Below, piece by piece: positions 10,338-58,967 of a DNA stretch of 64,000 nucleotides (position 1 is its first letter; every line of letters starts with the position of its first letter). A program made the translations under genes and the position numbers. The DNA is from Candidatus Daviesbacteria bacterium (GTDB taxonomy: Bacteria > Patescibacteriota > Microgenomatia > Daviesbacterales > UBA10151). The stretch is taken from NCBI GenBank assembly GCA_027451625.1, contig DAIDIY010000048.1, positions 26,917-90,916 of the forward strand, read 5' to 3'. A model generated the notes under the pieces. The model saw only the letters and a list, made by a program, of their open reading frames with translations, searched no databases and was not told the DNA's origin.

Positions 10338-10408
10338 AGGCCTGGACCGGACTTGAACCGGTGTGTGCGGTTTTGCAGACCGCTGGATGGCCACTCTCCC
10401 ACCAGGCC
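10338..10408 (-). tRNA. tRNA-Cys (anticodon GCA)
   Basis: Cloverleaf read on the minus strand: acceptor GGCCTGG/CCAGGCC, anticodon stem GCGGT/ACCGC with loop CTGCAAA, T-arm ACCGG-TTCAAGT-CCGGT. Confidence 0.8.
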
Positions 10409-10543
10409 CTACGCTGATTTTAGCATATTTGAAAACAAGATCCTAAGATAGAATAATACTCTTTTCGTGGTAATCTAAAAGTCCTTATGGACAAACAAAG
10501 GCTACAAAACAAATCAATAAGAATCTAATTTATGATTTCAATT

Positions 10544-11215: not shown

Positions 11216-11244
11216 ACTTAAAAATTAGATTTATTCATTTTATT

Positions 11245-12138: not shown

Positions 12139-12210
12139 CTTTATATTCCTTAGTAAGTTAAAAAAAACTTATCTAATTTAGGTAATAAATTCTATTTGTC
12201 TTACCCTCAA

Positions 12211-13467: not shown

Positions 13468-13550
13468 ACGATCTATTCTACCCTAAAACTGGTTATTTGA
13501 CAGCATAAATGTTTACAGTGGAGGCTAATGTAAGGTAAAATTACCGGTAA

Positions 13551-13622
13551 GGCAGGGTAGCTTAGAGGAAGAGCAACACATTCATAACGTGTAGGCCATG
13601 GGTTCGAATCCCATCCCTGCTA
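13551..13622 (+). tRNA. tRNA with anticodon CAT (elongator Met, or Ile2 if lysidinylated)
   Basis: Acceptor GGCAGGG/CCCTGCT (G1-U72 wobble), anticodon loop TTCATAA, T-arm ATGGG-TTCGAAT-CCCAT. No 3-GC run in the anticodon stem, so it is not the initiator. Confidence 0.65.
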
Positions 13623-13662
13623 CTTTTTTAGTGGTATATTAACTTCAAAAATAAAATCTATG

Positions 13663-13734
13663 TTGCGGGGCTGGGATTCGAACCCAGGACCTCGAGATTA
13701 TGAGCCTCGCGAGCTGCCACTGCTCTACCCCGCG
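13663..13734 (-). tRNA. initiator tRNA-fMet (CAT)
   Basis: Minus-strand sequence CGCGGGGTAGAGCAG...CTCATAA...CCCCGCAA is near-identical to E. coli tRNA-fMet, including the C1-A72 mismatch. Confidence 0.85.
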
Positions 13735-13852
13735 GTTTTTAGATATCTATAAATTAATCCAAAAGAAAAATCTTGAGTAAACTTTTCTAAATGTATTATA
13801 TAACAAGACTGACCTGAGTGCAAAATCGATTACAAATATTATATATTCTTAA

Positions 13853-14218
13853 TCAGAAAAAACCAAAAATATTTAACCATCCCTGCCAATATGGTAGTTT
13901 CACTTGAGGAACTTTTCTCTCTTGAGCCATTATCTTGTCTAATTCACTTTGAGAGATAATCACGACTGTCTCATTAGGTTTGGCTAAATCCATTCTATCT
14001 CGTGCTTGTTCCTCAATAAAATTTAAAGAGGAAACATTCTTAAATTCAGATTTAAGTTTTAAATTATTGTCTTCTAAAGTCTGCAGTTGTGCTTGTGCAT
14101 CATACAACCTTTTCCCGGCCTGGAGTGAATCATAAATCTGCTTACTTAGGCTATAAAGCAGCAAGAAGAAAAGGCCAACTATAGCCACGAATGTAATATT
14201 TTTTCTTAAGTTATTCAT
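13853..14218 (-). CDS. ftsB: cell division protein FtsB/DivIC family (septum formation initiator)
   Basis: Single N-terminal TM, a coiled-coil, then IEEQARDRMDLAKPNETVVI, the conserved FtsB/DivIC C-terminal motif. Confidence 0.7.
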   Translation of the reverse strand: MNNLRKNITFVAIVGLFFLLLYSLSKQIYDSLQAGKRLYDAQAQLQTLEDNNLKLKSEFKNVSSLNFIEEQARDRMDLAKPNETVVIISQSELDKIMAQERKVPQVKLPYWQGWLNIFGFF

Positions 14219-14292
14219 ATATCAAAAAAAAAATTGTACATTGACTTTCACAACCTATATAAGTAATATATAAGATATAAATTTCTATTAAA

Positions 14293-15159
14293 ATGACACT
14301 TACCGAAGCCAGAACTAAATTTATTGATTTCTTAAAGACTAAAAAACGTTCCTCGAGTACTATTCTAGCTTACGGAAAGGATATAGAGCAACTTGTTTCC
14401 TATTTAGAAGAGAGAAAAGTTATTGATCCTACCAATGTGACTACCGATCAACTAAATCTTTTTATGCAGAAATTGGCTCAAGAAAACTATACAGCTAAAT
14501 CAATCTCTCGGAAAACTAACTCAACTAAAACTTTTTTTAAATATCTGAAGACAGAAAATATCATTCAAAATGATCCAGCTTCAGCCTTAGAACACCCCAA
14601 CTTTGAAAATAAGCCACCTCGGATATTAACAAAAATGGAATATCGAGCTTTGAGAGATGCTGCCAGAGGTGATATACGAATGTCAGCTGTAATAGAACTC
14701 CTATTACAAACAGGTGTAAGAATTGGAGAATTAGCTAAGATAGATCTAGAAGATTTAACTTTAAGTAGTGATAATCCCAGTTTATATATAAAACCTCAAG
14801 AAGGAGCTGTGGAGAGGCATATTCCTCTTAATAAACCTGCACTTGATGCTTTAACAAAATATTTAGATGTTAGATCCAAAACGCAAAGTAAATCTTTATT
14901 TGTGACCAAAACAGGCAGACCTCTACTAGTAAGAAATATTCGAACAGCCATAGATCGATATTTCAGACTCGCTGGTATAAAAGGTGCCAAAGTTAATGAT
15001 TTACGTCATACTTGGGTTGCTCATCAACTAGAATCTGGAATGTCACTGGTTATGGTTTCTAAACTTTCTGGGCACAAAAGAGTTTCTACTACTGAAAAGT
15101 ATCTTCAATATATCCCTTCTCGTACATCTGAAGATAAAATTAAATTAGAAGAACTTTAA
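14293..15159 (+). CDS. xerD: tyrosine site-specific recombinase, XerC/XerD family
   Basis: N-terminal SAM-like domain (ILAYGKDIEQLVSYL); catalytic LRHTWVAHQL...GHKRVSTTEKYL with the R-H-R-Y residues. Confidence 0.75.
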   Translation: MTLTEARTKFIDFLKTKKRSSSTILAYGKDIEQLVSYLEERKVIDPTNVTTDQLNLFMQKLAQENYTAKSISRKTNSTKTFFKYLKTENIIQNDPASALEHPNFENKPPRILTKMEYRALRDAARGDIRMSAVIELLLQTGVRIGELAKIDLEDLTLSSDNPSLYIKPQEGAVERHIPLNKPALDALTKYLDVRSKTQSKSLFVTKTGRPLLVRNIRTAIDRYFRLAGIKGAKVNDLRHTWVAHQLESGMSLVMVSKLSGHKRVSTTEKYLQYIPSRTSEDKIKLEEL

Positions 15160-15177
15160 ATTCATAAAAGTATAGAG

Positions 15178-15249
15178 TGCGCCTGCTTGGGATCGAACCA
15201 AGGACATCTACTTTATAAGAGTAGCGCTCTACCACTGAGCTACAGGCGC
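15178..15249 (-). tRNA. tRNA-Ile (anticodon TAT/UAU)
   Basis: Minus-strand read GCGCCTG-TA-GCTCAGTGGTAGAGC-G-CTACT-CTTATAA-AGTAG-ATGTC-CTTGG-TTCGATC-CCAAG-CAGGCGC-A. The 7-nt anticodon loop has UAU at positions 34-36. Confidence 0.7.
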
Positions 15250-15385
15250 ATCAAAACCTTTCAATTGTATCAAGATATATTTATTAAAAACATAAACTTT
15301 TTAATAAATACTATTTTAAGAAATACTCAAGTATTAAAAGACTATACGAATAGTAATATGTGCCTGTTCTTATGTCAACAAATAG

Positions 15386-15589
15386 CTATTTAAGATAGTT
15401 TAATACAAAACTAAGGATGATTGCTAAAAGTAAACCTGAAACAAATGGAATATATAATTTTATACTGTATCTATCTACAAAAATATCCCCAGGAATTGGA
15501 GGATAATTTTTTAGCACTAAGTTAGCTAAAAAAGCTATAAACAACTCACTAACAACAAATAAATAAAACCCTCTTATTATAAGATGCAT
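15386..15589 (-). CDS. small hydrophobic membrane protein (hypothetical)
   Basis: 67-aa ORF with two predicted TM helices, immediately downstream of the VirD4-like gene on the same strand. No motif. Confidence 0.3.
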   Translation of the reverse strand: MHLIIRGFYLFVVSELFIAFLANLVLKNYPPIPGDIFVDRYSIKLYIPFVSGLLLAIILSFVLNYLK

Positions 15590-15609
15590 TATTTAAACTC
15601 TTATAGCCT

Positions 15610-17952
15610 CTAAAGATTTGCCCTATGAGTAATCTCTGTTTCAACTTCTCCTACATCACGACCATATGTTAGTCGAGATAATTCCTTAATAGCTTGGGCA
15701 ATATTGGGATTTTTCATTGCATTCCAAGCATTAACATCAATTCCAACATTCATTGAAAATGGAGGGACAGGTTCTCCATGAACTTGGGTTTTAACATACA
15801 CGTGCCGAGCTTCAATATTTACCAAATCTTGTTCAGAAAATACCGGTGAGAACTCATGTTGTAAAAAGTTTGCATCTGTTACTCCTACTCGATAAGTCAT
15901 TAAAGTTCCAACATTACCAAAAATAGCATTCTTAATTTCTTCAGGCATCTGTCCTATAAACTGGTTAGCAACAATTAAGTTTAAATGGTACTTTCTAGCT
16001 TCAGACAAGATAGTAGCAAAAGTGTCCGTAGCAAAATTTTGAAACTCATCTACATACAAATAAAAATCTCTTCTTTGAGATTCTGGGACATCAGCTCTCG
16101 ACATCGCAGCAGCCAAAATTTTAGGAACTAAAATAAGTCCTAAGAAATTAGAATTTTCTTCTCCCATTCTTCCTTTCGAGAGATTAACAATTAAAATTTT
16201 TCCATTATCCATAATCTCTCGAAGATTGAACGAGGACTTACTCTGACCAATGATATTCCTTAACATTCTATTTGTGACAAAACGCCCAAATTTAGAAACT
16301 GTATAATCTAACACCTCGGATTTATGAAAATCGGCTGTATGAGCAATCTGATCAGTCCAATACCGCCTTACTATCGGATCAGTTACATAGGGTAAGAGCT
16401 CTTTAACATACTCAGGATCTTGCATTATTCTCATAACTTCAACAAAAGTATTTCCAGGAACAGACATGACTGTTAACATCGCATTTCTTACTCCATGCTC
16501 AAAACGAGGTCCAATAATTCCTGTTTTATGAGGGTCATATAGCTTATACATAAGACCTAAAATTTCAGTTGTGATGAAGTGTTTCTCATCTTCTGTTCTA
16601 GCATCAAGCATATTCATTCCAAAAGGTCGAGAAACATCACCTGGGTCAAAATAAACTACGTCTTGAGCTCTATTAGGAGGAATAAGCGATAACATCTCCT
16701 CAGCAGCATCACCGTGCGGATCGATAAAAGCTATTCCCTTACCCGATATAATATCTTGAAGCATTAAAGTCTTAAGTAGAGTGGTTTTACCTGTTCCAGT
16801 ACGTCCAATAATATACATATGTCGTTGGCGATCCTCCTCAGAGATATAAACAGGTCTTTGAGTACCTCGGAAAATAGATTTCCCTAAATAAAGACCTGAG
16901 GTAGGAATTTTCTCTGAGGCTGGAGCTGATCTTGCTGGCAACCAAGCTATATGAGGAGTTGTTATAGATTTATTGGGGAAGTGATAAATCGTGGCTATTT
17001 CTTCAGGGGTAAGAATCGGAATCTTGTGTAAAAGAGGAGTGTAGCGGTTGATAAAATCAGTAATAAACCCTTTTTCAGATGGCACTTTAGCACCACTGAA
17101 GCTATTATAAGGACCAGCAAACTGCTCAAATGAAGCCTTAATATTGGCAAGATGCGCCTTTGCACTATCCTTATTAATTGAAGAGGTAACTATCCTTATA
17201 GTCACAAAAAAACCAGGTTTAGAAATTTTATTTTCAACAGCTTCAAGTTGTTTAGTATCTGGAGGTGGTTTAGGATTATCGGGCTTACCAGGATCTTTTT
17301 CTTTTTTTATCCATTTTTTAGCTAAATCCTTCCATTTATTATCTGCAGGACTCATGATAAGCTGAACCGTAGCACCTTCCCCTTCTCCCATCTTAGCCAA
17401 GGCTGAAGTCATTGAACTTAATGGGTCTGTGGGTAAATCCTTATAAGTCTTTATTGGAAAATAATCAGATGATTTAAGATTATATTGAGCATAAGCGGTC
17501 TGTCCACCTTCTGAAAAAATATTATATTCTGGAACTTCTTTAATCTCAGCATCAGGATATGCACCATGGATCTGTTTTTCCACTAAATCTTGTAATGATT
17601 TATTAACACATATATAGAACTTTATTGACTCATGTAAAGCCACTATCTCAAAAGAAATTTGGTTTTGCATTTTTAGGCTCATAAAACCAGTATTTTTCTT
17701 TATCGAATTTAAGGCTGCAAAGAGTTGTTCCATTGCATCAATCTTAATCTCATTATCTTTAGGTACATTAACCTGGAGCACTATAGATTGCAAAGAATAC
17801 TTATCTCTACCTCGACTTCTCAACCAAGCAAAAAAATAATGGAAAAAAGAAACAGCTAGAATTACAAAAAGTCCAACCAAAAAGAATCCTCCAATAACTA
17901 AAGCTATAATAAGTGTTAAATCAGAGCCTCCTGTGGCTGTTGAAACTTCCAT
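15610..17952 (-). CDS. VirD4/TraG/TrwB-like type IV coupling-protein-family P-loop ATPase (or DUF87/HerA-like)
   Basis: N-terminal TM anchor; Walker A MYIIGRTGTGKTTLLK, then IAFIDPHGD, Walker B DFYLYVDEFQNF. 780 aa. Confidence 0.5.
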   Translation of the reverse strand: MEVSTATGGSDLTLIIALVIGGFFLVGLFVILAVSFFHYFFAWLRSRGRDKYSLQSIVLQVNVPKDNEIKIDAMEQLFAALNSIKKNTGFMSLKMQNQISFEIVALHESIKFYICVNKSLQDLVEKQIHGAYPDAEIKEVPEYNIFSEGGQTAYAQYNLKSSDYFPIKTYKDLPTDPLSSMTSALAKMGEGEGATVQLIMSPADNKWKDLAKKWIKKEKDPGKPDNPKPPPDTKQLEAVENKISKPGFFVTIRIVTSSINKDSAKAHLANIKASFEQFAGPYNSFSGAKVPSEKGFITDFINRYTPLLHKIPILTPEEIATIYHFPNKSITTPHIAWLPARSAPASEKIPTSGLYLGKSIFRGTQRPVYISEEDRQRHMYIIGRTGTGKTTLLKTLMLQDIISGKGIAFIDPHGDAAEEMLSLIPPNRAQDVVYFDPGDVSRPFGMNMLDARTEDEKHFITTEILGLMYKLYDPHKTGIIGPRFEHGVRNAMLTVMSVPGNTFVEVMRIMQDPEYVKELLPYVTDPIVRRYWTDQIAHTADFHKSEVLDYTVSKFGRFVTNRMLRNIIGQSKSSFNLREIMDNGKILIVNLSKGRMGEENSNFLGLILVPKILAAAMSRADVPESQRRDFYLYVDEFQNFATDTFATILSEARKYHLNLIVANQFIGQMPEEIKNAIFGNVGTLMTYRVGVTDANFLQHEFSPVFSEQDLVNIEARHVYVKTQVHGEPVPPFSMNVGIDVNAWNAMKNPNIAQAIKELSRLTYGRDVGEVETEITHRANL

Positions 17953-17983
17953 AATTAGTATTCTATTCTCCTTATCTACTACT

Positions 17984-18370
17984 TTACTTCTTATTTACTT
18001 CTACAATTTCCATCCCCGGATGTTTAGCTGATAAACGTTTCTTGTGCTCTATGAGAAAAACATTGGAAGGCTCAGTTCGAGGTCTGCCCATGTTACCAGC
18101 TATTATATCCTCTAGGTCAACATTATTCTGGTCTGATATTTTAAACCATTTTAAAATTTTTTCCCACAGACTAGCCTTTTTACTTTGTTCTCCAGAAGCA
18201 AGATTGTCTTCAGGAATCATTGGAGTTTGATTTTCTATAGGTACGATATTATCTAAACTAACAGCTTTACCAGTAATTTCGGTTAAGTTTTGAGATATAT
18301 TCTGATGCAGCGATTTTGTATGAGATTCAGCATCACTTCCAGGTTGGATTAAATCATATATATCTACCAT
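17984..18370 (-). CDS. hypothetical protein
   Basis: 128-aa ORF directly upstream of and co-directional with the VirD4-like gene. No recognisable motif. Confidence 0.35.
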   Translation of the reverse strand: MVDIYDLIQPGSDAESHTKSLHQNISQNLTEITGKAVSLDNIVPIENQTPMIPEDNLASGEQSKKASLWEKILKWFKISDQNNVDLEDIIAGNMGRPRTEPSNVFLIEHKKRLSAKHPGMEIVEVNKK

Positions 18371-18451
18371 ATAAAGTTATTATACTCTACATGTCACGAC
18401 AAAGAGAGAATGTTATAGAACTAAATTAAATGGTAAAACTGAGGATTCTAG

Positions 18452-19399
18452 TTACTTACTTTGTTTAATTTTAAGATTTTCTAAATAGTCTTCAACGTCT
18501 AAAGCTGCTTTACAGCCAGCTGCAGCAGCAGTAACTGCCTGTTTGTATATCCGATCAGCGACGTCTCCAGCCCAGAAGATACCATCGATGGATGTTTTAG
18601 TCTCGTCAAAAACTTTAATATATCCTTTATCATCAAGCTCTAGTTGAGATTTTAAAAACTCCGTATTAGGTTTATGTCCAATTGCTATAAAAACTCCAGC
18701 AATCGGCATAACGGAGGTAGTACCGTTTTTAATATTTTTTAATCTTACAGAGGTAAGAACATTCTCCCCAAGAAATTCTTCTATAACACTATCTATTATA
18801 AATTCAATATTAGGCTTCGACTTAACTAACTCTAAAAGTGCTGGTTGAGCACGAAATTCATTTCGTCTATGAACTATATACACTTTTGAACAGATCTTAG
18901 ATAGATGTTGAGCTTCTCTCATAGCCGTATCTCCTCCACCTATTACAAGAACCTCTTTCCCTTGAAAAAACAATCCGTCACAAACTGCACAAGCTGAAAC
19001 TCCATGACCAATAAACTTCTCCTCTGAAGGAATTCCTAACCACATAGCTGAAGCACCCGTAGCTATAATTACTGACTGAGCGATGACTTTTTCACTCTCA
19101 GTTTGAATTACAAACGGTCGTGTTGAGAAATCTACTTCAACCACATCTTCATTAATGAATCTTGTATTAAAACGTTCAGCTTGAGATCTCATTTGCATCA
19201 TCAGTTGAGGGCCTTGAATACCTTCACTAAACCCTGGGAAGTCATCAACATCTGTTGTAAGCATAAGTTGTCCTCCGGCAGATCTGCCTGCTATAACTAG
19301 TGGAGATAAACTTCCTCTTGCTGCATAGATAGCTGCTGTAAGTCCAGCTGGTCCTGAACCTATAATGACTAATTTTTTGATGTCTGTAGAATCTTTCAT
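18452..19399 (-). CDS. trxB: thioredoxin-disulfide reductase
   Basis: FAD site GSGPAG, redox-active CAVCDG, NADPH site GGGDTA, C-terminal GDV. Confidence 0.9.
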   Translation of the reverse strand: MKDSTDIKKLVIIGSGPAGLTAAIYAARGSLSPLVIAGRSAGGQLMLTTDVDDFPGFSEGIQGPQLMMQMRSQAERFNTRFINEDVVEVDFSTRPFVIQTESEKVIAQSVIIATGASAMWLGIPSEEKFIGHGVSACAVCDGLFFQGKEVLVIGGGDTAMREAQHLSKICSKVYIVHRRNEFRAQPALLELVKSKPNIEFIIDSVIEEFLGENVLTSVRLKNIKNGTTSVMPIAGVFIAIGHKPNTEFLKSQLELDDKGYIKVFDETKTSIDGIFWAGDVADRIYKQAVTAAAAGCKAALDVEDYLENLKIKQSK

Positions 19400-19423
19400 A
19401 TTTCTCCTTTTTCAAAAGATACC

Positions 19424-19729
19424 TTAAGATTTTGGAGATATCTTTACTTGGGGGATAACCTTTACAGCAGATGGTGACACTTCTTTCACTCTCATTGATG
19501 GTGTAATTATTGCTGAAGATGAAGATACTAATGGAAGAGGCGTAATGGTTGGAGTTGGTACCGACATCATAGGAGTAGGAGTTGCGGAAACAGCGACTTC
19601 CTGAGAAAATTGATTTCTAAGCCAAACGAGATATCCTGCAATAACTAATATCGTAAGTACAACAATCAGAATAGTCACATTTCGATTCATAACTTTATCG
19701 ATTTTACATGAATGTAAACATAGGTACAA
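19424..19729 (-). CDS. small secreted/membrane-anchored Ser/Pro/Thr-rich protein (hypothetical)
   Basis: N-terminal TM or signal (VTILIVVLTILVIAGYLVW), then a low-complexity S/P/T-rich tail. Confidence 0.35.
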   Translation of the reverse strand: MYLCLHSCKIDKVMNRNVTILIVVLTILVIAGYLVWLRNQFSQEVAVSATPTPMMSVPTPTITPLPLVSSSSAIITPSMRVKEVSPSAVKVIPQVKISPKS

Positions 19730-19779
19730 GAGATGATTTTTGGCTTGCTAAAAACAAAATATTAATTTAAAATTTTTTT

Positions 19780-40097: not shown

Positions 40098-42041
40098 ATG
40101 ATTCCCATTAAAAAGTACTTAAAAGTATCTGCTATATTAATCGTTCTTATGATGTTTTTTTCGATCTTTCCCAAAAAAGTTAAAGCTGATAATAATTTTA
40201 GTTATTCTCAATACTTTGGGACTCTCAATCAAATCTCAACTTCTGGAATAAAGGTTACAATTACAAATAATGCTGGCGACTTTGCATCTGGTTCAGATAT
40301 TTCTTATGCATGGGGTTTGTCTTATAATGGATCCCCGATTGATGTAGAAAACTCTATTCCCCAGATAAGTGGTAACACAATTACTGTTGATATTTATTCA
40401 TCATATTTTCAATGGTACGGCGCTGGGAACTACCAATTTTCATTATGGGTTGGAAAGTTTGGACAACCTCCTGATTATAATTCATCAAGTGCAAGTTATA
40501 TTATTCACAATAAAACAATCGTCTTCAAACAAGTTTGTCCTTCCAATACAGGATGTAGTGATGATGCGACTTTTAGCAACAACTCTTCTCCAATAAAAGT
40601 AGTTATTGGAGAAAATACAATGCCTAAGATAACAGTCAACAACCTTTATGATTACAATAGCTATTATTTTTGGTGGATTGATGGAAATAATAATTTAGAA
40701 AATTCTGGTTATAGCCTTGTAAATCCAGGTGAACAAACCGAACAAGTAGTAGGGGTTAACGCACCCAATTCTTTGCTTTCAAATGCATATGAAAATAGTA
40801 GCAATGCAAAATCTGTGACTTTATATCTTTGTATAACAACAGATTCGACAGGCATTCCTCCAACTTCTTCTGGATGTATAAATAAACAACAATTTGAATT
40901 TGATCCTCCATCAATCTACCCCTACCCCAACCCCATACAGATAAATCAACCTGCACAAGTATTAATCAGTTTTGGGGGAGTAGGAACTAATTACACATTC
41001 GTGCCGACATCTGGGTTCGGGTATCTCCTAAACTCAAACTCTCCAACACGAGATGGATCCTTTGTGATCCCAATAGGCACATTTTCTCAACCGGGGAATC
41101 CTTCATATTGTATGATTATAAATTCTGGAGCAAATCAAATAGGCGATGATCAAAATTGTCAATTTAAAGTAACATTTAATGTTCAGGCGTCTCCAAGCAC
41201 ATCTACAAATCTTCCTTGTGGACCCACAAGTTCGGCTTCTATATCTTTATACTCAGATGGTCAACAAACATCAACTCTAGAAATAAACAAATCAGGGAGT
41301 ATTGACTGGAATAATATTTGCATTCCCTCTCCGCAAGATGTAATTAAAATCTTTAAAACAGATTCTTCTGGGAATAATTTAGGTGACCCAGTCTTTTATA
41401 CCTATGTTGATTGTAAAAATGTGACAACAGGGCAACAAGACGATCCAAACATAGGTGATAGTCCCCTACCTTCAGGAAATTGTTCAGTAGGACCTTTTAC
41501 AGACACAGGAAACTATAAAGCTTATTATGTGTCTATTTTCTATCAAAACAACCCTCTAGCTTCTTTTCCATTCGTAGTTACCTTACCTAATACGCCTACA
41601 GTAACTACATCTCCTCAGTCTTTAACATCAGCTCCTCCTGCTCCAGTTGTTTCTAATTCTACCGGACAATTATGTAATGTAAAAACAGGTAAGTATTATA
41701 ATGGCTCACCAAGTAACCCAACTCCTCTGACTTTAGACGATATACCAAATCCAGCAGATAGAGGAGTTTATACTGCAGTAGGATGTGTTCCAACAGATCC
41801 AGCTATTTTTATAAATAACCTATTAAGAGTAGCAATTGGAGCGGGAGGTGGAATAGCACTTCTACTTATGGTAAGAGGTGTGTTTGAGATTATGGGTTCA
41901 GCTGGCAATCAAGAAGCAGTACATAAAGGTCGAGATCAACTTATTTCAGCGGGTATTGGACTCCTATTTATAATTTTTGCAGTCCTCCTTCTCAAATTCA
42001 TCGGAATTAATATATTGCAAATTCCGGGATTTTCTTCTTAA
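40098..42041 (+). CDS. large secreted Ser/Thr/Asn-rich protein ending in a VirB2/TrbC-like pilin module (pilin-fusion adhesin candidate)
   Basis: Signal peptide MIPIKKYLKVSAILIVLMMFFSIFPKKVKA. About 560 aa of low-complexity extracellular sequence. C-terminal 75 aa (LRVAIGAGGGIALLLMVRGVFEIMGSAGNQEAVHKGRDQLISAGIGLLFIIFAVLLL) has the same helix/GxxxE charged loop/helix pattern as the next four genes. Confidence 0.55.
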   Translation: MIPIKKYLKVSAILIVLMMFFSIFPKKVKADNNFSYSQYFGTLNQISTSGIKVTITNNAGDFASGSDISYAWGLSYNGSPIDVENSIPQISGNTITVDIYSSYFQWYGAGNYQFSLWVGKFGQPPDYNSSSASYIIHNKTIVFKQVCPSNTGCSDDATFSNNSSPIKVVIGENTMPKITVNNLYDYNSYYFWWIDGNNNLENSGYSLVNPGEQTEQVVGVNAPNSLLSNAYENSSNAKSVTLYLCITTDSTGIPPTSSGCINKQQFEFDPPSIYPYPNPIQINQPAQVLISFGGVGTNYTFVPTSGFGYLLNSNSPTRDGSFVIPIGTFSQPGNPSYCMIINSGANQIGDDQNCQFKVTFNVQASPSTSTNLPCGPTSSASISLYSDGQQTSTLEINKSGSIDWNNICIPSPQDVIKIFKTDSSGNNLGDPVFYTYVDCKNVTTGQQDDPNIGDSPLPSGNCSVGPFTDTGNYKAYYVSIFYQNNPLASFPFVVTLPNTPTVTTSPQSLTSAPPAPVVSNSTGQLCNVKTGKYYNGSPSNPTPLTLDDIPNPADRGVYTAVGCVPTDPAIFINNLLRVAIGAGGGIALLLMVRGVFEIMGSAGNQEAVHKGRDQLISAGIGLLFIIFAVLLLKFIGINILQIPGFSS

Positions 42042-42102
42042 TAAAATACTAATTTCTCTTTACTGTCTTGCCTAGAAAAATTTAAAAGATTAGTATGTTC
42101 TT

Positions 42103-42786
42103 ATGTTATCATTTTTGAGTAATACAGCTTACGCTCAGACATTAAAAATTCCTGGACTAGATCAAATTAAAGGTCCCCTAACTAATACAAATCGACCTTT
42201 TGATACTCCGGGAGGAGTTATCACAACAGGTTTAGATATTTTTTTTACAGTCATGACTTTTATTGCCTTTTTATGGATGATCTGGGGAGCTATTGCATAC
42301 ATATTTGCTGCTGGGGAGAAGGAAGCATTATCTAAAGCTAAAAATCGAATATTCGCTGCTTTAATAGGATTGTTTATAATTGCTTTATCTTATACAGCCA
42401 CCCAATTAATTTTTCAAATACTACAGCCTAATGTTCCTAATCCACTATCTCTTAGCATTATTCAACCTGTTTATGCACAAGCATCAACAGGTTATGGTTC
42501 AGATTTGAGTAAAACATATGCTTTTGGTAATTTCTTAGATTTTGGTAGCATTACTGCATTAATTATGCCTTTTATTTTCTCTATAGCTACTACTGGAGTA
42601 GTTATATACTTTCTAATTGGAGCTTTTAGATTTGTTATCTCAGCTGGTAATAAAGAATCAATAAGTAAAGCACAGTCAATGATTACCCATGCAGTAATTG
42701 GATTCTTTATTTTGATATTTATTTTTCTGATATTTCAATTTATTCCGCAATTTTTCGGTTTTAAGTTTAGTGTATTTGGCCAGTAG
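42103..42786 (+). CDS. VirB2/TrbC-like pilin-fold protein, internal tandem duplication (two modules)
   Basis: Module 1 FFTVMTFIAFLWMIWGAIAYIFAAGEKEALSKAKNRIFAALIGLFIIALSY. Module 2 FIFSIATTGVVIYFLIGAFRFVISAGNKESISKAQSMITHAVIGFFILIFIFLIF. Confidence 0.55.
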   Translation: MLSFLSNTAYAQTLKIPGLDQIKGPLTNTNRPFDTPGGVITTGLDIFFTVMTFIAFLWMIWGAIAYIFAAGEKEALSKAKNRIFAALIGLFIIALSYTATQLIFQILQPNVPNPLSLSIIQPVYAQASTGYGSDLSKTYAFGNFLDFGSITALIMPFIFSIATTGVVIYFLIGAFRFVISAGNKESISKAQSMITHAVIGFFILIFIFLIFQFIPQFFGFKFSVFGQ

Positions 42787-42834
42787 TTAACTTAAATATT
42801 TTATAAACAAAAATGTTAAGATTTAAAATCTAAA

Positions 42835-43371
42835 ATGACAAAAAAACTTTTAGTTTTATCTGTTTTTATAGTAGTCTTTTTTTTGGCTATTCCAAACAAC
42901 GTTTATGCTTGCAGTGGGCCTGGAGATTGTCCTGCTGGTGAATATTGCAACACTAGTAACCCTCCGGGAGAATGCCAGTCTGTCTTAGGACATATTAGTC
43001 CTCCCCAAGCTATTTCGAATATAGGTTACGGGTCTCAGGGTATTGGACACTTCTTAAGCCAGCTTATTCAACTTTTATATGTTGCTGCAGCAATTGTCTT
43101 TGTTTTTATGATCCTTTGGAGTGCATTTCAATGGATAATGTCAGCAGGAGATAAAGAAAAGCTAAACGCAGTAAGGAGCAGAATGATACATGCTATTATC
43201 GGTATAGCTCTTCTTGCAGCCGCTTTTGTAATAATTAGATTTTTCGGACAGGTTACAGGGTTTCATTTCTTCCAAGGACAAGAAAATCCAGACTTCTCTC
43301 TTCCTACACCTACTCCTTGTTTAATGTTTGTTCCAGGAGCAGGTCAATTGACTCCTCAGCCTTGTTCCTAA
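42835..43371 (+). CDS. VirB2/TrbC-like pilin-fold protein with Cys-rich N-terminal segment
   Basis: Signal peptide; CSGPGDCPAGEYCNTSNPPGEC; then LLYVAAAIVFVFMILWSAFQWIMSAGDKEKLNAVRSRMIHAIIGIALLAAAFVII. Confidence 0.55.
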   Translation: MTKKLLVLSVFIVVFFLAIPNNVYACSGPGDCPAGEYCNTSNPPGECQSVLGHISPPQAISNIGYGSQGIGHFLSQLIQLLYVAAAIVFVFMILWSAFQWIMSAGDKEKLNAVRSRMIHAIIGIALLAAAFVIIRFFGQVTGFHFFQGQENPDFSLPTPTPCLMFVPGAGQLTPQPCS

Positions 43372-43450
43372 ATTAAGTTTATATGCCTAATCTTTAGGTT
43401 CACTAGGACGAACTATTGACAAGGTACGTTAATCAATCTAAGATTAAATC

Positions 43451-43804
43451 ATGACTCCTACACCTACAGAATCACCAGCAACCACCATAGCAATTCAACC
43501 CCCAAGTGGTGTTGGAATAAGTCCTACTTATTCTATTAGCAGTTTATTCCACAATATCATAGGTTTATTTTTCGTAGTAGGTGCAATACTTGTAATATAC
43601 AATTTAATCATGGGTGCTTTTGATTGGATATTATCAGGTGGAGATAAGGAAAAAATAAGTGCTGCGAGAAATAAAATTATAAATGCTTTAATTGGTTTTG
43701 CCATACTTGCCGTTGCTTTTGTAATACTCAACTTTACTGGAAAATTAATTAATATTGATATTTCAAATCTTAATGTACCTAAATTAGGAAATCCTCCCTC
43801 TTAA
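43451..43804 (+). CDS. VirB2/TrbC-like pilin-fold protein
   Basis: IIGLFFVVGAILVIYNLIMGAFDWILSGGDKEKISAARNKIINALIGFAILAVAFVIL. Confidence 0.55.
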   Translation: MTPTPTESPATTIAIQPPSGVGISPTYSISSLFHNIIGLFFVVGAILVIYNLIMGAFDWILSGGDKEKISAARNKIINALIGFAILAVAFVILNFTGKLINIDISNLNVPKLGNPPS

Positions 43805-43870
43805 ATTTCTTCAACGATATAAACTAAGTTAGTTGTCAAAAATAAATATCTAATTTATTATTATTGTGAT

Positions 43871-44179
43871 ATGCAAGCCGCAGCAGGAATCGAGGATTTA
43901 CAAGCTTTAATTCAAAGAATTCTAGGATTAGTAGTAATTGGAGCATTCTTAGTTCTCTTATTCCTCTTCCTTTCAGCTGGATTCAAATATTTAACTTCAG
44001 GAGGAGAACCCAAAGGAGTTCAGTCAGCCCATAACACATATACATGGGCATTAATAGGTATCGCCCTTTTACTAATCGTATTTGTAGCCTTACGGTTAAT
44101 TTCTTCCTTTACCGGAGTAGATGTTACCAAGTTTTGTTTAGGTTTCCCTGGCTTGGAGAGTACTACTTCATGCTTTTAA
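43871..44179 (+). CDS. VirB2/TrbC-like pilin-fold protein
   Basis: LVVIGAFLVLLFLFLSAGFKYLTSGGEPKGVQSAHNTYTWALIGIALLLIVFVAL. Confidence 0.5.
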   Translation: MQAAAGIEDLQALIQRILGLVVIGAFLVLLFLFLSAGFKYLTSGGEPKGVQSAHNTYTWALIGIALLLIVFVALRLISSFTGVDVTKFCLGFPGLESTTSCF

Positions 44180-50988: not shown

Positions 50989-52146
50989 ATGGATGCACAT
51001 CCTGTCCCACAAAATGTGACTTCTTTTGAGTTCCACCTGGTTGGAGATATGACTCTAAAGCAATTTGGATATCTTGCAACGGGGTTAATTATTGCCTATA
51101 TCACATTCTTATTTTTTTTTAATAACCTTCCGTATGTAGCAACTCCAATTATTGCTATCTCTGCTGGATTAGGAGCAGCTTTTGCCTTTTTGCCCATCTA
51201 TAATCGTCCTTTAGATCACTGGGTAAACGTCTTCTTTCATGCTATATTCTCTCCTACCCAGAGAGCATGGAGAACCCCAACAGACAAACCAATACCAAAT
51301 GACCTAAGAGCTGAATTAATTAAAAACCGCCTTCATCTTTTTATGCAAAGCACTGCCATACCCCAATCCTCCTATGGAACACCATTTCCTTCTAACTCTG
51401 CATCTATTAATTTAAGACGTCTACCTATAAATACCCACCCAAACTTAAATTTTCCTTCACACCCTAACTCTTCTAATAAACCTGAACCATCTCAAAATCA
51501 AACCTTAAAACCGACTAAAACAGGCTCGACAACCTCTAAGATGCCTACCCCTGAGGAACTAAACCACTTAGTAGAAATGGCCCGACAGACCCAAATGCTT
51601 CAGAGTAAAACTCTCGAATTGGAAAAAGAGCTCTCCCAACTTAAGTCTTTGCTTGCATTACAATCTACAAAAGGATCTTCTCCTGTTCAGCTGTCACAAA
51701 CAGGATCAGTAGTTCAGCAAGCTGGATCACAATTAAATCAATTGCAAAAACAGGCCATACAAGTTGCACAGCAAAAAGTTCAACCTCCAATCCCTAACCC
51801 AACTCCTCCTGCTAAACCCCCTAAAGTCGTGATAATAGAGCCTCCAAAACAAACAAAAACAGTAATTGCCTTAACATCGCTACCCAATATTATTAACGGT
51901 ATTATTACAGATACAGTCGGAAATTATCTCGAAAATGTAATTGTCATAATTCATAATCAGGATAACCTACCAGTCAGGGCTTTAAAAACCAATAAACTTG
52001 GCCAGTTCACAGGAGCCACGCCGTTACCTTCTGGTGTTTACACTATTACAATGGAAAAGGAAGGATTTGATTTTGACACATTACAAATAACTCTAAACAA
52101 CCAGATTGTTCCACCAATTAAAGTTACGGCAAAAAAAGGAGGTTAA
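50989..52146 (+). CDS. VirB10/TrbI-like architecture: TM anchor, Pro-rich linker, coiled-coil, C-terminal beta domain
   Basis: Two TM helices (aa 35-75); Pro-rich aa 100-290; coiled-coil (LEKELSQLKSLLALQ); C-terminal domain GIITDTVGNYLENVIVIIHN...GVYTITMEKEGF resembling a carboxypeptidase-regulatory or Cna-B-like beta-sandwich. Directly precedes VirB4. Confidence 0.35.
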   Translation: MDAHPVPQNVTSFEFHLVGDMTLKQFGYLATGLIIAYITFLFFFNNLPYVATPIIAISAGLGAAFAFLPIYNRPLDHWVNVFFHAIFSPTQRAWRTPTDKPIPNDLRAELIKNRLHLFMQSTAIPQSSYGTPFPSNSASINLRRLPINTHPNLNFPSHPNSSNKPEPSQNQTLKPTKTGSTTSKMPTPEELNHLVEMARQTQMLQSKTLELEKELSQLKSLLALQSTKGSSPVQLSQTGSVVQQAGSQLNQLQKQAIQVAQQKVQPPIPNPTPPAKPPKVVIIEPPKQTKTVIALTSLPNIINGIITDTVGNYLENVIVIIHNQDNLPVRALKTNKLGQFTGATPLPSGVYTITMEKEGFDFDTLQITLNNQIVPPIKVTAKKGG

Positions 52147-53136
52147 ATGTTCTCTACTCAACAAGCTATATTAATCGAGGACATTAAAGATGATCTAATA
52201 TTTTTAAAAGATGGCGGCGCATCCTTAATTCTCAATACTACTGCTGTTAATTTCGGTTTACTTTTTGAGACAGAGCAAATGGCTATTATCGATGCTTTCG
52301 CTCAACTGTTAAACTCTCTTTCATTCCCAATACAAATTGTTATTCGCTCAAAAAAAATGGATATCTCTTCATACCTTAGCACACTTGAGAGAGCTTTAAA
52401 GTCACAAACTAACCAACTCCTCGCTCAACTAACTCTAGATTACCGGAATTTTGTTGAAGGATTAATTAAGGAAAACGATGTACTCGATAAACAATTCTAT
52501 GTTTGCCTTTATGTTTCAGCAATCGAAATGGGAATTTTACCTAAACAACAAACTGATAGGAGTAGAAAAGCTAAAGCAATGCTAGAAACAAGAAGAGATT
52601 TAATATTAAGGCAACTGAACAGAATTGGGCTCAAAGCGAGACAGCTTGCAACAGCTGAGTTAATTAATCTCTTTTATGATATCTATAACCCAGATAATTG
52701 GTACTTCTCCACTGATGACGAAAGTGTAGTCGATCCTGAAGCAGAAAGAAAAGAAAACGAATTACAAACGTCAACTCCCAACATACCTTCACAACTCAAA
52801 CGAATTGTTCCTCAAACACCTATTGTTCAACACACACTTCAAAGTAACCTCCAATTAAGACCGATACCTCAACTCGTTCAACATCAATCACATCTAGAAC
52901 CTAGATCTCCACTACAACAAAATTCTACCCCTCTTTCTCAAAACAACCCACAAGCTACAAATATATTTCAAAAACCTCAAATTCCATTTCAAATACCAGT
53001 TAATGGGCCTACAGTAAATCCTTTACCTCCAATAAAACAAAATCCACCAAATAGCCAACAGCCATCGCAGAACAATTCGATAAATAGGGCCTCTCCGTTT
53101 ATAGTTGAAGAACTAAAAGATGACTTTGGATCCTAA
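52147..53136 (+). CDS. VirB4/TrbE/CagE N-terminal domain protein (first part of a split VirB4) with Gln/Pro-rich tail
   Basis: N-terminus AILIEDIKDDLIFLKDGGASLILNTTAVNFGLLFETEQMAIIDAFAQLLNSLSFPIQIVIRS matches the VirB4/CagE_TrbE_VirB N-domain. Residues ~230-329 are Q/P-rich. Overlaps the next ORF by 17 nt in another frame. Confidence 0.6.
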   Translation: MFSTQQAILIEDIKDDLIFLKDGGASLILNTTAVNFGLLFETEQMAIIDAFAQLLNSLSFPIQIVIRSKKMDISSYLSTLERALKSQTNQLLAQLTLDYRNFVEGLIKENDVLDKQFYVCLYVSAIEMGILPKQQTDRSRKAKAMLETRRDLILRQLNRIGLKARQLATAELINLFYDIYNPDNWYFSTDDESVVDPEAERKENELQTSTPNIPSQLKRIVPQTPIVQHTLQSNLQLRPIPQLVQHQSHLEPRSPLQQNSTPLSQNNPQATNIFQKPQIPFQIPVNGPTVNPLPPIKQNPPNSQQPSQNNSINRASPFIVEELKDDFGS

Positions 53137-54850
53137 ACCTAAAATAGATCTTACATTGCAAGATGTCGTTGCCCCTGCTGAATGGGAGGTAGATTTTTCA
53201 CACCTACGGATCAATCAAACTCTTTTTAGAAGCTTTATAGTTACTTCATATCCAAGATTCGTTGATCCAAATTGGTTAGAACCACTAATTGCGTTTGACC
53301 ATTCACTTACCATTTCTATGTTTATTTATCCAACTAACTCCGCTGGTGTTATGGATGACTTAAAAAGAAAAATTGCAGAGATGGAGGCAACTCTCCAATC
53401 AGATTTAGATAGAGGCAGAGCTGTTGATCCGTCTGTTGAAGTTGCCTTAGAAGACGCAGAAGCTCTACAAGACCAATTGGCAAGAGGTACAGAGAGATTC
53501 TTTCAATATTCTTTGTATGTAACAGTACCTGCAAAAAATAAAACTGAACTTAATAACATATCACAGCTTGTAACATCAACTTTGAGAAGCATTTCAATTA
53601 CGGCATATCCATCTGTTTTGGAAATGGAAGATGGTTTCAAGTCAACTCTTCCAGTAGGAGAAGATATGCTATATGTTCCTCATAATATGGATACCACTTC
53701 TTTAGCCACTACGTTTCCATTTACTTCCTCTGAATTAACATCGCCCCAAGGAGTAGTTTATGGAATTAATGAGCATAATGATTCCTTAATAATCTTTGAT
53801 AGATTCAGCCAAGAAAATGCTAATTCAACAATTCTTGCTACCTCTGGAGCTGGAAAATCGTATCTGGTCAAACTAGAAACACTGCGATCTCTAATGTTAG
53901 GTACAGAGGTCATTGTTATTGATCCTGAGCGTGAATACTTAAAACTTGCTCAAGCTGTCGGAGGAGATTATATAAATTTCTCCACGAACTCTCCCATAAA
54001 GATTAATCCATTTGATCTTCCAGAAGTCGCAGACCAAGGAGAAAACGAACTGGGGAGAAAGATACTGTCATTAAGTGGCTTCCTAAAACTAGTATTAGGA
54101 GAACTTACCCCCCAAGAGTCAGCCATTTTAGATCGAGCTTTAAATACTACATATAGAATTAAAGGTATTACTGAAGATACTAGAACACAAATGGGAAAAA
54201 AGGATACTGAAATGCCACTAATGGAAGATCTATATAAAGTACTTTTGGGCATGGAGGATCAAGTATCAACAGGACTGGCGGTCCGACTTGAAAGATTCAT
54301 CAGAGGATCGCTTGCGGGAATTTTCTCTGCTCCATCAAATTTAAGAATTTCCAACCTACTGACAATCTTTTCTGTCCGTGATTTACCAGAACAACTTCGG
54401 CCTCTAGCAATGCATCTAATTTTAGATTACATTTGGACTAAGATTAGGAAGGAACAAAAAAAGCGGATATTGGTTGTTGATGAAGCATGGTATCTGATGA
54501 AATATCCTGACTCTGCCAGCTTTCTAGTTGAAATGGTAAAAAGGGCTAGAAAGTATTTTCTTGGAGTAACTACAATCAGCCAGGATGTTGAAGATTTCTT
54601 AGAAAGAGATCATGGAAAAGAGGTTATCTCAAACTCATCAATGCAAGTTTTACTTAAACAAGCGCCTGCATCAATTGAAAGGATAGGTGAAACATTCAAT
54701 CTCTCTCAAGGAGAAAAAAGGCTATTACTTTCATCTGGAGTCGGACAGGGCTTATTTTTTGCTGGTAATACTCATGTCGCGATGAGAGTAGTTGCTTCTC
54801 CAAAGGAACACCAATTAGTTACAACTAATCCCACTGAATATCAAAACTAA
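53120..54850 (+). CDS. virB4: VirB4-family type IV secretion ATPase (C-terminal catalytic part)
   Basis: Walker A ILATSGAGKSYLVK; Walker B RILVVDEAWYLM; downstream GVTTISQDVEDF; upstream FRSFIVTSYPRFVDPNWL. Confidence 0.8.
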   Translation: MTLDPKPKIDLTLQDVVAPAEWEVDFSHLRINQTLFRSFIVTSYPRFVDPNWLEPLIAFDHSLTISMFIYPTNSAGVMDDLKRKIAEMEATLQSDLDRGRAVDPSVEVALEDAEALQDQLARGTERFFQYSLYVTVPAKNKTELNNISQLVTSTLRSISITAYPSVLEMEDGFKSTLPVGEDMLYVPHNMDTTSLATTFPFTSSELTSPQGVVYGINEHNDSLIIFDRFSQENANSTILATSGAGKSYLVKLETLRSLMLGTEVIVIDPEREYLKLAQAVGGDYINFSTNSPIKINPFDLPEVADQGENELGRKILSLSGFLKLVLGELTPQESAILDRALNTTYRIKGITEDTRTQMGKKDTEMPLMEDLYKVLLGMEDQVSTGLAVRLERFIRGSLAGIFSAPSNLRISNLLTIFSVRDLPEQLRPLAMHLILDYIWTKIRKEQKKRILVVDEAWYLMKYPDSASFLVEMVKRARKYFLGVTTISQDVEDFLERDHGKEVISNSSMQVLLKQAPASIERIGETFNLSQGEKRLLLSSGVGQGLFFAGNTHVAMRVVASPKEHQLVTTNPTEYQN

Positions 54851-57866: not shown

Positions 57867-58967
57867 TTAGCTTAAGTTAATCGGCATAATAATATATTCA
57901 AGACTTGAGTCCTGCAAAGGCCTAACCAAAACAGCAGACAAGGAGCCAGAAAGCTGCATCTCTACTTCCGAATCAGGGAATGCGCCTAAGACATCCATCA
58001 AAAATTTTGCATTAAAAGCAATCTGAATCTCTTCTCCTAATACTTTGGCTGAAATTTCTTTTTTTTGGCCACCCAATTCTTTAGTCTCAGAGGTTAAGGT
58101 AATACCTTGGTTTCCCACAAAAAACTTTATAACATTAGCCTCTCCTCGAGCAAAAACAGAAGCCAACTTGACAGCCTTTAGAAGCTCATTTCTATCAAAA
58201 TTTACTGTTGTTTTTTTGTCAGTAGGTATAATTTTCTCCCAGGAAGGAAATTGTCCTTCAATCAAGCGTGATGAAAGTTTGGTATTACCAAAGCTAAAAA
58301 TTATTTGATTCTGATTATCAGAGGTTGAGATATTAACTTGCAGAGGTTTCTCTTCCGAAATTAATCTCAAGATTTCTTCTAAAGTTCTTCTTGGCACAAG
58401 AGCCTTAAAAGAGGAATCTTCATCAATCTCTACAACCTTGTGTGCTAATCTATACCCGTCAGTGGCCACAAACTGAAGTTTTTTATCTTTTATTTCAGTC
58501 AACACCCCAGTCAGAACTGGCCTTCCTTCATCCAAAGCCGAAGCAAAACTAACCTGAGGCAGACATGAATGGAGTGTATCTGCTTTCACTAGCGCAGTCT
58601 CTTTACCGCTTAAAGGAATCGCAGGAAACTCAGACGAGTCAATTCCATTAATAGTTGAAGAGAATGTTGGAGTTTTTATTTCCATTAAATTTGAATTAGC
58701 TGTAAATTCTATCTTTTCTCCTTGTAAATTAGAAACTAAATCCACAAGAGTACGTGCTGGCACACTAACAGCTCCTTCCTCGATAACTTCAGTCTTTATT
58801 GTTCTTACAACACCTACCTCTAAGTTTGTCGCTGAAACTTTCAGAGAGCCACTCTCTGCCTCTATAAGTATATTTCCCAGCACAGGAAGTTGAGCTTTCA
58901 TCCCCACAGATCTTGATGCTGAGTTTAATATGGGCATTATGTCTTGTTGAAGAATCGAAAATTTCAT
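57867..58967 (-). CDS. dnaN: DNA polymerase III beta sliding clamp
   Basis: N-terminus MKFSILQQDIMPILNSASRSVG...QLPVLGNILIEA and three-domain length (366 aa); downstream of dnaA. Confidence 0.9.
   Translation of the reverse strand: MKFSILQQDIMPILNSASRSVGMKAQLPVLGNILIEAESGSLKVSATNLEVGVVRTIKTEVIEEGAVSVPARTLVDLVSNLQGEKIEFTANSNLMEIKTPTFSSTINGIDSSEFPAIPLSGKETALVKADTLHSCLPQVSFASALDEGRPVLTGVLTEIKDKKLQFVATDGYRLAHKVVEIDEDSSFKALVPRRTLEEILRLISEEKPLQVNISTSDNQNQIIFSFGNTKLSSRLIEGQFPSWEKIIPTDKKTTVNFDRNELLKAVKLASVFARGEANVIKFFVGNQGITLTSETKELGGQKKEISAKVLGEEIQIAFNAKFLMDVLGAFPDSEVEMQLSGSLSAVLVRPLQDSSLEYIIMPINLS

Follow-up and report, generated by a model that had tools for sequence, protein, structure and literature searches.

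The stretch of DNA analysed here, hereafter the window, comprises 64 kb of a contig from a Candidatus Daviesbacteria bacterium (Microgenomatia), and the system in question is a group of genes in which a membrane-anchored P-loop ATPase, a tRNA-Ile gene and an Xer-family tyrosine recombinase stand side by side. The window includes 15 kb on one side of this tRNA gene and 49 kb on the other. The ATPase, recognized by its open reading frame (ORF), Pfam matches and motifs, has 780 aa and is encoded at 15610..17952 on the minus strand. Facing it from the plus strand is the recombinase (288 aa; 14293..15159), in which Pfam finds a SAM_1 N-terminal domain and a catalytic domain. The tRNA-Ile gene lies between the two at 15177..15249 on the minus strand (ARAGORN; Rfam tRNA, 74.5 bits), with anticodon TAT (UAU) and no encoded CCA. 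From the recombinase stop (15159) to the 3' end of the tRNA there are 17 nt by ARAGORN and 18 by Rfam. Beyond the recombinase, and divergent from it, is a gene for a DivIC/FtsB-like septum-formation protein (13853..14218, minus strand; Pfam DivIC, 52.6 bits), and then come two tRNA-Met(CAU) genes found by both ARAGORN and Rfam, one at 13551..13623 on the plus strand, which belongs to the conserved block described below, and a second copy, divergent from the first, at 13662..13734 on the minus strand. On the other flank, a 128-aa ORF (17984..18370) stands just upstream of the ATPase, and a thioredoxin-reductase-like flavoprotein (18452..19399; Pfam Pyr_redox_2, 170.7 bits), syntenic in Daviesbacteria relatives, precedes it; both are on the minus strand. 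A sequence-only reading of this DNA had already placed the recombinase and the tRNA-Ile(UAU) where they are found here. It had also reported two small ORFs, which correspond to the 128-aa ORF and to a DUF2905 gene at 15386..15589.

The arrangement was compared with that in other genomes. At least 594 species-representative genomes, distributed over the Patescibacteria, encode a full-length relative of the ATPase; the loci of the 80 best (40-71% identity) were fetched and their neighbouring genes mapped with tblastn and ARAGORN. These 80 represent Davies-, Woese-, Levy-, Curtiss-, Gottesman-, Roizman-, Collier- and Shapirobacteria, along with Dojkabacteria, WWE3, Saccharibacteria and Doudnabacteria. 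The closest relative, locus L081 (with L082), encodes an ATPase 81% identical to that of the window. Among the metagenome-assembled genome (MAG) records with clear Patescibacteria gene blocks, many bear the title 'uncultured Gammaproteobacteria', 'Pseudomonadales bacterium' or, at the extreme, 'Bathyarchaeia archaeon' (L004-L006, L010, L011, L014 and others), and the titles of such records are an unreliable guide to taxonomy.

The order ATPase, tRNA-Ile(UAU), convergent Xer, DivIC and tRNA-Met recurs across the Microgenomatia. In 38 of the 56 loci that have at least 3 kb of sequence downstream of the ATPase (within the range L001-L067), a tRNA-Ile(TAT) gene occurs inside those 3 kb, and in 27 of the 38 it is within 600 nt of the ATPase, often just 14-60 nt past the stop. 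Xer is found downstream in 28 of the 56, and both Xer and tRNA-Ile in 25. Unsupervised clustering of all neighbouring ORFs returned just two widely conserved neighbours, Xer in 36 loci and DivIC in 29, with Xer convergent with the ATPase in 32 of 33 positioned copies, and in many related loci DivIC and then one or two tRNA-Met genes follow beyond Xer. The order in L081 matches that of the window throughout: thioredoxin reductase, small ORF, ATPase, tRNA-Ile, Xer, DivIC and tRNA-Met. Across loci, the identity of Xer falls with that of the ATPase (Spearman 0.53, p 0.001), as expected under vertical descent. The linkage of ATPase and Xer seldom extends beyond Microgenomatia and a few neighbours, and is present in only 3 of about 12 informative loci at 50% ATPase identity or less. 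The juxtaposition of Xer, tRNA and ATPase is thus not a matter of chance, since it reflects a conserved gene order and not an insertion. This order of tRNA-Ile(UAU), Xer and DivIC in Microgenomatia is a minor new observation.

The recombinase matches Pfam models Phage_integrase (PF00589, 100.9 bits) and Phage_int_SAM_1 (PF02899, 53.6 bits), and among NCBIfam models it scores best with XerD, XerC and XerA (152-163 bits). Residues were mapped with reference XerC and XerD sequences, which themselves mapped to the expected residues. Catalytic R143, R238, H261 and Y270 are present; the alignment around the beta-hairpin Lys is ambiguous, with K167 as the candidate. No other Xer-like ORF is seen within the window. 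The recombinase is most simply regarded as the housekeeping Xer, that is, the conserved chromosomal Xer-family enzyme of this lineage, which would presumably resolve chromosome dimers at a dif-like site. A perfect 13-7-13 palindrome, TATTTATTAAAAA CATAAAC TTTTTAATAAATA, described as A+T-only, is present at 15278..15310 between tRNA-Ile and the DUF2905 gene. As the one notable palindrome close to Xer or the tRNA, it was considered as a conserved recombination site and rejected because the pattern occurs in 0 of the 80 related loci.

The tRNA-Ile(UAU) gene is a conserved housekeeping tRNA gene located between two convergent genes by happenstance. Decoding of AUA by tRNA-Ile(UAU) is on record for some bacteria only, for example Mycoplasma mobile, in which tilS is missing (PMC3575796); the literature on tRNA-Ile(UAU) or TilS in the candidate phyla radiation (CPR) offered nothing decisive. 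On its 5' side, the gene for a small membrane protein of the DUF2905 family (67 aa; minus strand; Pfam, 35.5 bits) is lineage-specific filler between the ATPase and the tRNA, and in most relatives tRNA-Ile takes that place, 14-100 nt past the ATPase stop. A 68-aa ORF on the opposite, plus strand (15187..15393) overlaps the tRNA gene and is probably spurious. On the 3' side, the interval between tRNA-Ile and Xer varies among relatives from 4 nt to 3.6 kb, and its contents, unrelated small genes, differ by lineage; among them are toxin-antitoxin-like pairs and genes for a GIY-YIG protein, for Idi and for a 574-aa membrane protein (L011-L013, L018, L020, L022, L028, L033, L035, L047, L064 and L070). 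The interval is a small variable spot within conserved synteny. In L081 (11825-11886), as well as in L082, a degenerate copy of the tRNA-Ile 3' half, TTGGTTCCaGGTTCG-[30 nt]-GTCCAGGCAGCTCtAC, is situated between the tRNA and Xer; in L081 it lies 25 nt downstream of tRNA-Ile and abuts the Xer stop, so that Xer is outside the scar. A tRNA-like 5' fragment also occurs in L081 at about 11651-11700. These fragments resemble scars left by earlier integration or rearrangement events at tRNA-Ile, and, together with the variable small genes, the 3' copy in L081 indicates that tRNA-Ile has been a site of local rearrangement. The window has no scar of this kind at its tRNA-Ile.

A recombinase gene adjacent to a tRNA 3' end is a feature of integrated elements, and it is present here. 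It led the sequence-only reading to propose the remnant of an integrated, perhaps conjugative, element, for which a direct repeat of the tRNA 3' end (attL/attR) and a discontinuity in GC or codon usage were the traces to look for. Neither trace is found in the window. The 22-mer at the tRNA-Ile 3' end is unique there even when three mismatches are allowed. Exact repeats of the 161-nt tRNA region reach 12-13 nt at most, which equals the background median of 13 nt; these longest ones are rich in A+T and fall outside the tRNA. An att repeat of 14 nt or more is lacking in 38 of the 40 relatives tested. GC content is flat across the region (0.32-0.36), as it is elsewhere in the window, with z-scores of -0.53 for Xer and +0.17 for the ATPase. 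GC3 is unremarkable. In codon usage Xer does not stand out, and of 10 genes of similar length the ATPase deviates least. Presence is not patchy either, the gene order being kept both in Daviesbacteria and across the Microgenomatia. The layout itself is also informative. Integration at the 3' end of a tRNA gene puts the whole element on the 3' side of that gene. On that side of tRNA-Ile are Xer, DivIC, both tRNA-Met genes and SucCD-like genes, and the ATPase is found 5' of the tRNA, so the geometry is wrong for an element inserted at the tRNA 3' end. Nor does a contiguous conjugation module follow 3' of the tRNA in the window, where no relaxase is seen and virB4 is 35 kb off, beside dnaA. Placement conserved among relatives with no repeat of the tRNA 3' end was the outcome that the sequence-only reading itself had named as refuting its proposal, and it is the outcome seen. 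The proposal of an element remnant is accordingly abandoned in favour of conserved placement. We consider it very likely that the adjacency of ATPase, tRNA, Xer and DivIC is ancestral Microgenomatia gene order, part of the ordinary, vertically inherited Daviesbacteria chromosome and not a mobile element. Setting aside the reading as a remnant of an integrative and conjugative element (ICE) removes a false mobile-element call.

The ATPase begins with one long hydrophobic helix (35 residues, 12-46; 17815..17919), predicted to be transmembrane (TM), followed by a basic RSRGRDK sequence that places the bulk of the protein in the cytoplasm according to the positive-inside rule. Next come a cytoplasmic alpha/beta domain, DUF8128 (residues 56-330; 16963..17787), with a fold like that of the VirB4 N-terminal domain (NTD), and, in the AlphaFold2 model, a RecA-like motor (residues 350-780; 15610..16905) with an all-alpha insert at residues 454-582. 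The motor includes the Walker A motif GRTGTGKT (16783..16806) and the Walker B motif YLYVDE (16045..16062); all of these parts are encoded on the minus strand. Pfam models DUF87, TrwB_AAD_bind and TraG-D_C match weakly yet above cut-off, TrwB_AAD_bind at 27.3 bits (cut-off 20.5) over only 30 residues and TraG-D_C at 22.5 bits (cut-off 22). TraD-type models match around the P-loop, with NCBIfam SXT_TraD reaching 50.8 bits against a cut-off of 366, and TIGR00929 (VirB4) scores 19.2 bits against a cut-off of 643. By sequence the protein falls outside the VirB4 families TIGR00929, CagE_TrbE_VirB and TraC_F_IV. The best sequence matches in PDB are TrwB and DotL. With its N-terminal helix, both Walker motifs and these matches, the protein is what the sequence-only reading took it to be, a TM-anchored P-loop ATPase with VirD4/TraG-like motifs. 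Its homologues number more than 5,658, the closest named ones being from Candidatus Daviesbacteria (67-81% identity). Walker A, Walker B and many residues of the N-domain are invariant across 25 diverse CPR homologues, which suggests an enzyme that is presumably active and under strong constraint.

As modelled with AlphaFold2, the full-length protein (pLDDT 81.5) comprises the TM helix, the N-domain and the motor with its all-alpha insert. The N-domain (PF26449/DUF8128 in precomputed Pfam annotation) modelled alone has a pLDDT of 92.3 and a pTM of 0.90, and its top 14 Foldseek matches in PDB are all TrwK/VirB4 chains. At the level of predicted fold, then, the ATPase combines a VirB4-type N-terminal domain with a RecA-like C-terminal domain, and the VirB4 N-terminal fold of DUF8128, as judged from these models, is a new addition of this work. 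Sequence searches do not reveal it. A profile of the N-domain has no matches among PDB sequences and no consistent match to the VirB4 NTD families in Pfam, and hhalign of the N-domain with the local TrsD-like protein gives a probability of 0.2, that is, no similarity. The relationship between DUF8128 and the VirB4 NTD is therefore visible in fold comparison only. Likewise, a profile of the ATPase family does not detect the bona fide VirB4 of the window (E > 1). The N-domain family comprises 2,220 clusters at 50% identity, always with the domain near the N-terminus and mostly in complete proteins of about 800-1,100 aa; a literature search on DUF8128/PF26449 brought nothing decisive.

The small, fast-evolving 128-aa ORF shares the strand of the ATPase, 31 nt ahead of it. 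It is 30% identical (E 1e-15) to a 109-aa ORF at the matching position in L081 (7662-7991). Similarity is detected against this closest relative only, hidden Markov models showing none to the small upstream ORFs of other lineages. Analogous ORFs nevertheless recur in position, and at least 21 other loci have one 5-11 nt before the ATPase (clusters 4 and 22 of the neighbour clustering). Taken together, the small upstream ORFs are of about 110-155 aa, have a low-complexity N-terminal part, and stand on the same strand 5-31 nt ahead of the ATPase. Their conservation in position is a new observation. The 128-aa ORF is a real gene and a likely operon partner of the ATPase, and the upstream small ORF may encode a dedicated partner or adaptor for it. 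A scan for promoters and terminators gave consensus-level matches only and is not relied on.

Outside the CPR, a tblastn search against plasmids returned only distant relatives, all below 60% identity, of which 14 are full length. Among the full-length homologues is one on the 24.7-kb Bacillus subtilis plasmid NZ_CP032854.1 (L083), with 25% identity over 747 columns (E 9e-55). Annotated as 'DUF87 domain-containing protein', it opens a Tcp-like conjugation operon (8956-20064). Directly after it comes a 'replication-relaxation family protein' (annotated relaxase), and then TcpE, TcpF (a VirB4) and a CD3337/EF1877-family protein. By its place in this gene order, the plasmid homologue occupies the position of a type IV coupling protein (T4CP), a further new addition of this work. 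Distant full-length homologues also occur on plasmids of Bacillus, Streptomyces, Staphylococcus and archaea (Natrinema, Sulfolobus and Haladaptatus). MOB-suite types most of the homologue-bearing plasmids as non-mobilizable. A phage origin was considered and rejected, as the relatives in phage and IMG/VR collections are all partial and limited to the motor domain. The ATPase descends from a coupling-type ATPase of monoderm conjugation systems, and its motor, with both Walker motifs intact, belongs to the VirB4/VirD4 clade.

A chromosomal type IV secretion system (T4SS) locus is present in the same window at 40098-57387. It includes five ORFs with VirB2-like T4SS pilin domains (40098..44179; Pfam T4SS_pilin), a PrgI/VirB3-like gene (50989..52146), a TrsD/TraC-N-like gene (52147..53136) and a VirB4-like ATPase of 576 aa (53120..54850), all on the plus strand, as well as large ORFs without Pfam matches at 45059-46792, 46798-49110, 49256-50629 and 54856-57387, the last encoding 843 aa. 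Beside these T4SS genes, a cobalamin riboswitch (51.4 bits; 50698-50843, minus strand) is located upstream of the 457-aa ORF at 49256-50629. Next to the locus are dnaN (57867..58967) and dnaA (59703..61022), both on the minus strand, which form part of a run of dnaN, dnaA, rnpA, yidC and jag at 57.9-63.3 kb. The GC-skew minimum at about 59-60 kb indicates the replication origin region, which makes the window origin-proximal, with the ATPase block about 45 kb off.

Chromosomal T4SS of the monoderm-conjugation type (mating-pair formation class MPF-FATA), with VirB2-like pilins and without a relaxase, often next to dnaA/dnaN, have been described in Patescibacteria (Quinonero-Coronel et al. 2025, Microb Genom, PMC12102498). 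In the same survey, 2,918 Patescibacteria genomes yielded 5,713 VirD4-type T4CP homologues, of which only 148 were near virB4. The layout of the window matches the Microgenomatia T4SS described there, and because it reproduces that picture, the ATPase is almost certainly a member of the 'orphan' T4CP set already on record. Earlier, the T4SS cluster had been reported as essential and without a recognizable coupling protein or relaxase (Wang et al. 2023, PMC10633639). We infer that the ATPase would oligomerize at the membrane and use ATP to feed a substrate, protein or DNA, to the T4SS pilus system 22-40 kb away, and the product of the small upstream ORF may act together with it. Partnership with the chromosomal T4SS, whether to energize or to feed it, is a tentative proposal to which we give slightly less than even odds. 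The alternative that the sequence-only reading had set beside its element remnant, namely a chromosomal Xer and an ATPase serving the distant T4SS, is essentially right. Its first half agrees with the syntenic Xer-family orthologue and its second with a T4SS locus at about 40-57 kb; the functional tie between that locus and the ATPase keeps the tentative standing just given.

Several observations weigh against parts of this account. Those concerning Xer are the following. The recombinase scores 163, 162 and 152 bits against the XerC, XerD and XerA models, whose equivalog cut-offs are 330, 335 and 220. The second His of the tyrosine-recombinase pentad, H244 in XerD, corresponds to Asn235 here, and Asn occupies this His-II position in all 35 CPR Xer orthologues aligned (that of the window and 34 in the related loci). 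Near the Xer gene, neither a dif-like site nor a conserved dif-like palindrome was found. The analysis covered the 64 kb of the window, and the rest of the genome may hold an attR farther off, another Xer paralogue or a relaxase. As regards the T4SS, the ATPase is 22-40 kb from the T4SS genes of the window, and T4CP homologues rarely adjoin virB4 anywhere (PMC12102498). The ATPase is linked to neither relaxase nor T4SS in the window, in which no relaxase is seen and virB4 is 35 kb away, such linkage being seen only in the Bacillus plasmid homologue. Finally, in Southlakia epibionticum the T4CP homologue, a candidate orthologue of the window ATPase, was reported as non-essential while the T4SS genes are essential (PMC12102498); the same authors state that exaptation of the T4CP homologue cannot be excluded.

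The nearest competitor to a substrate-recruiting coupling protein is a second assembly or energizing ATPase of the VirB4 type, serving for instance pilus biogenesis. The VirB4 of the T4SS locus appears split into the TrsD-like gene and the 576-aa gene, which leaves some room for this idea. We nonetheless judge it unlikely, because the best matches at the sequence level are T4CPs (TraD, TrwB and DotL), sequence similarity to the VirB4 NTD families is lacking, and the plasmid homologue stands beside a relaxase in the T4CP position while a separate TcpF/VirB4 is encoded in the same operon.

A more radical departure, exaptation of the ATPase as an FtsK-like septal DNA pump working with Xer and DivIC/FtsB in chromosome segregation or dimer resolution, is in our estimate quite improbable, at about half the weight of a second VirB4. 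The protein is a membrane-anchored motor of the FtsK-HerA superfamily, in more than 25 lineages its gene adjoins those for Xer and for a divisome protein, and the published T4CP homologue is dispensable for epibiotic growth, for which exaptation has been suggested. If true, such a role would account for both the persistent Xer/DivIC linkage and the reported dispensability for T4SS-dependent epibiotic growth. However, an FtsK gamma-like domain is not detected in the ATPase, FtsK is the more distant structural match, the linkage is not phylum-wide and the convergent genes do not form an operon. Moreover, the saccharibacterium TM7x has a separately annotated ftsK (PMC10768705). The literature on FtsK in Patescibacteria added nothing decisive.

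Marginally weaker still is the idea that the block is a fossil, left by an ancient ICE with a T4CP and a tyrosine recombinase that entered tRNA-Ile in the Microgenomatia ancestor and was domesticated. Conjugative elements of monoderms are considered the source of the T4SS and T4CPs of Patescibacteria (PMC12102498), plasmid homologues of the ATPase exist, and T4CP, tRNA and recombinase are kept together as a triad, all of which would fit. Against this, the recombinase has the XerC/D-type SAM_1 N-domain and resembles XerD, XerC and XerA best; the ATPase is phylum-wide and its Xer linkage mostly limited to Microgenomatia, as the few linked loci at 50% identity or less attest; the remaining T4SS genes are elsewhere, near dnaA; and, in the window, the genes are not arranged around the tRNA as a single element would be and neither relaxase nor att relics are seen. 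We regard it as very improbable. That a conjugative element or island arrived recently in the tRNA-Ile 3' end, bringing the recombinase as integrase and the ATPase as coupling protein, hardly deserves credence, for although an integrase-family gene stands 17 nt from the tRNA 3' end, the ATPase family descends from conjugative coupling ATPases, the degenerate tRNA half in L081/L082 marks a past site of rearrangement or integration and variable small genes (toxin-antitoxin-like pairs, a GIY-YIG protein) fill the tRNA-Xer space of relatives, the gene order is identical in dozens of species from several candidate phyla, att repeats fail in the window and in nearly all relatives tested, composition and codon usage do not deviate, the ATPase and recombinase flank the tRNA with DivIC, tRNA-Met and SucCD-like genes on the 3' side, no relaxase is seen in the window, and the L081 scar leaves Xer outside.

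The rest of the window is housekeeping in content, with genes for Mur ligase, Ddl, PGK, SucCD-like proteins, DivIC, thioredoxin reductase, GDP-mannose dehydratase and DnaG, a tmRNA gene (33414-33803, minus strand) and eleven tRNAs. A tRNA gene at 24591-24886 (plus strand), missed by ARAGORN, has its anticodon loop interrupted by a group I intron (Rfam RF00028; 24643-24843; 80.6 bits; E 1.8e-20), and its 3' exon encodes the CCA. By hand reading this tRNA may be Asn GUU, an assignment that depends on the exact splice sites.

Like tRNA-integrated ICEs and genomic islands, the window has a tyrosine-recombinase gene beside a tRNA 3' end; unlike them, it lacks att repeats, a compositional shift, a patchy distribution and a contiguous conjugation module, and it has housekeeping genes on the 3' side. 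The recombinase shares with XerC, XerD and XerA the SAM_1 plus catalytic architecture and the Arg-I, Arg-II, His-III and Tyr residues, and is conserved, syntenic and single-copy in the window, whereas the CPR enzymes fall below the equivalog cut-offs and have Asn in place of His-II in every one of the orthologues aligned.

The ATPase resembles canonical T4CPs (TrwB of R388, VirD4, TraD and DotL) in its N-terminal membrane anchor. The helical insert of its motor, as modelled with AlphaFold2, may correspond to the all-alpha domain of TrwB, although VirB4 C-terminal domains also carry a helical bundle, and the TraG-D_C match is marginal. The ATPase differs from canonical T4CPs in having one predicted TM helix instead of two, in carrying an extra 280-residue domain with a predicted VirB4-NTD-like fold, in scoring far below the NCBIfam TraD/VirD4 cut-offs (as with SXT_TraD) and in being unlinked to relaxase or mating-pair-formation genes in the window. 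From VirB4/TrwK ATPases it is set apart by an NTD without detectable sequence similarity, by a TIGR00929 score far below cut-off, by a TM helix of its own instead of reliance on VirB3, and by the presence of a separate, bona fide VirB4 in the genome. The Bacillus plasmid DUF87 protein is homologous to the CPR ATPase over its full length, N-domain included, but has no N-terminal TM helix and is plasmid-borne and relaxase-linked, whereas the CPR protein is chromosomal, TM-anchored and unlinked.

The closest correspondence is with the orphan T4CPs of Patescibacteria (PMC12102498), which are likewise chromosomal, phylum-wide, far from virB4 and without a relaxase; there is no difference in kind, identity with that set being drawn from annotation and domain content. 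The T4SS reported in the same work, with VirB2-like pilins, VirB3, TrsD and VirB4 next to dnaA/dnaN, is exactly as in the window. This family is among the most conserved of the functionally unassigned CPR families, and the predicted VirB4-NTD fold, the plasmid homologues in the coupling position and the fixed block with its small ORF provide handles for telling a role in the T4SS from exaptation.

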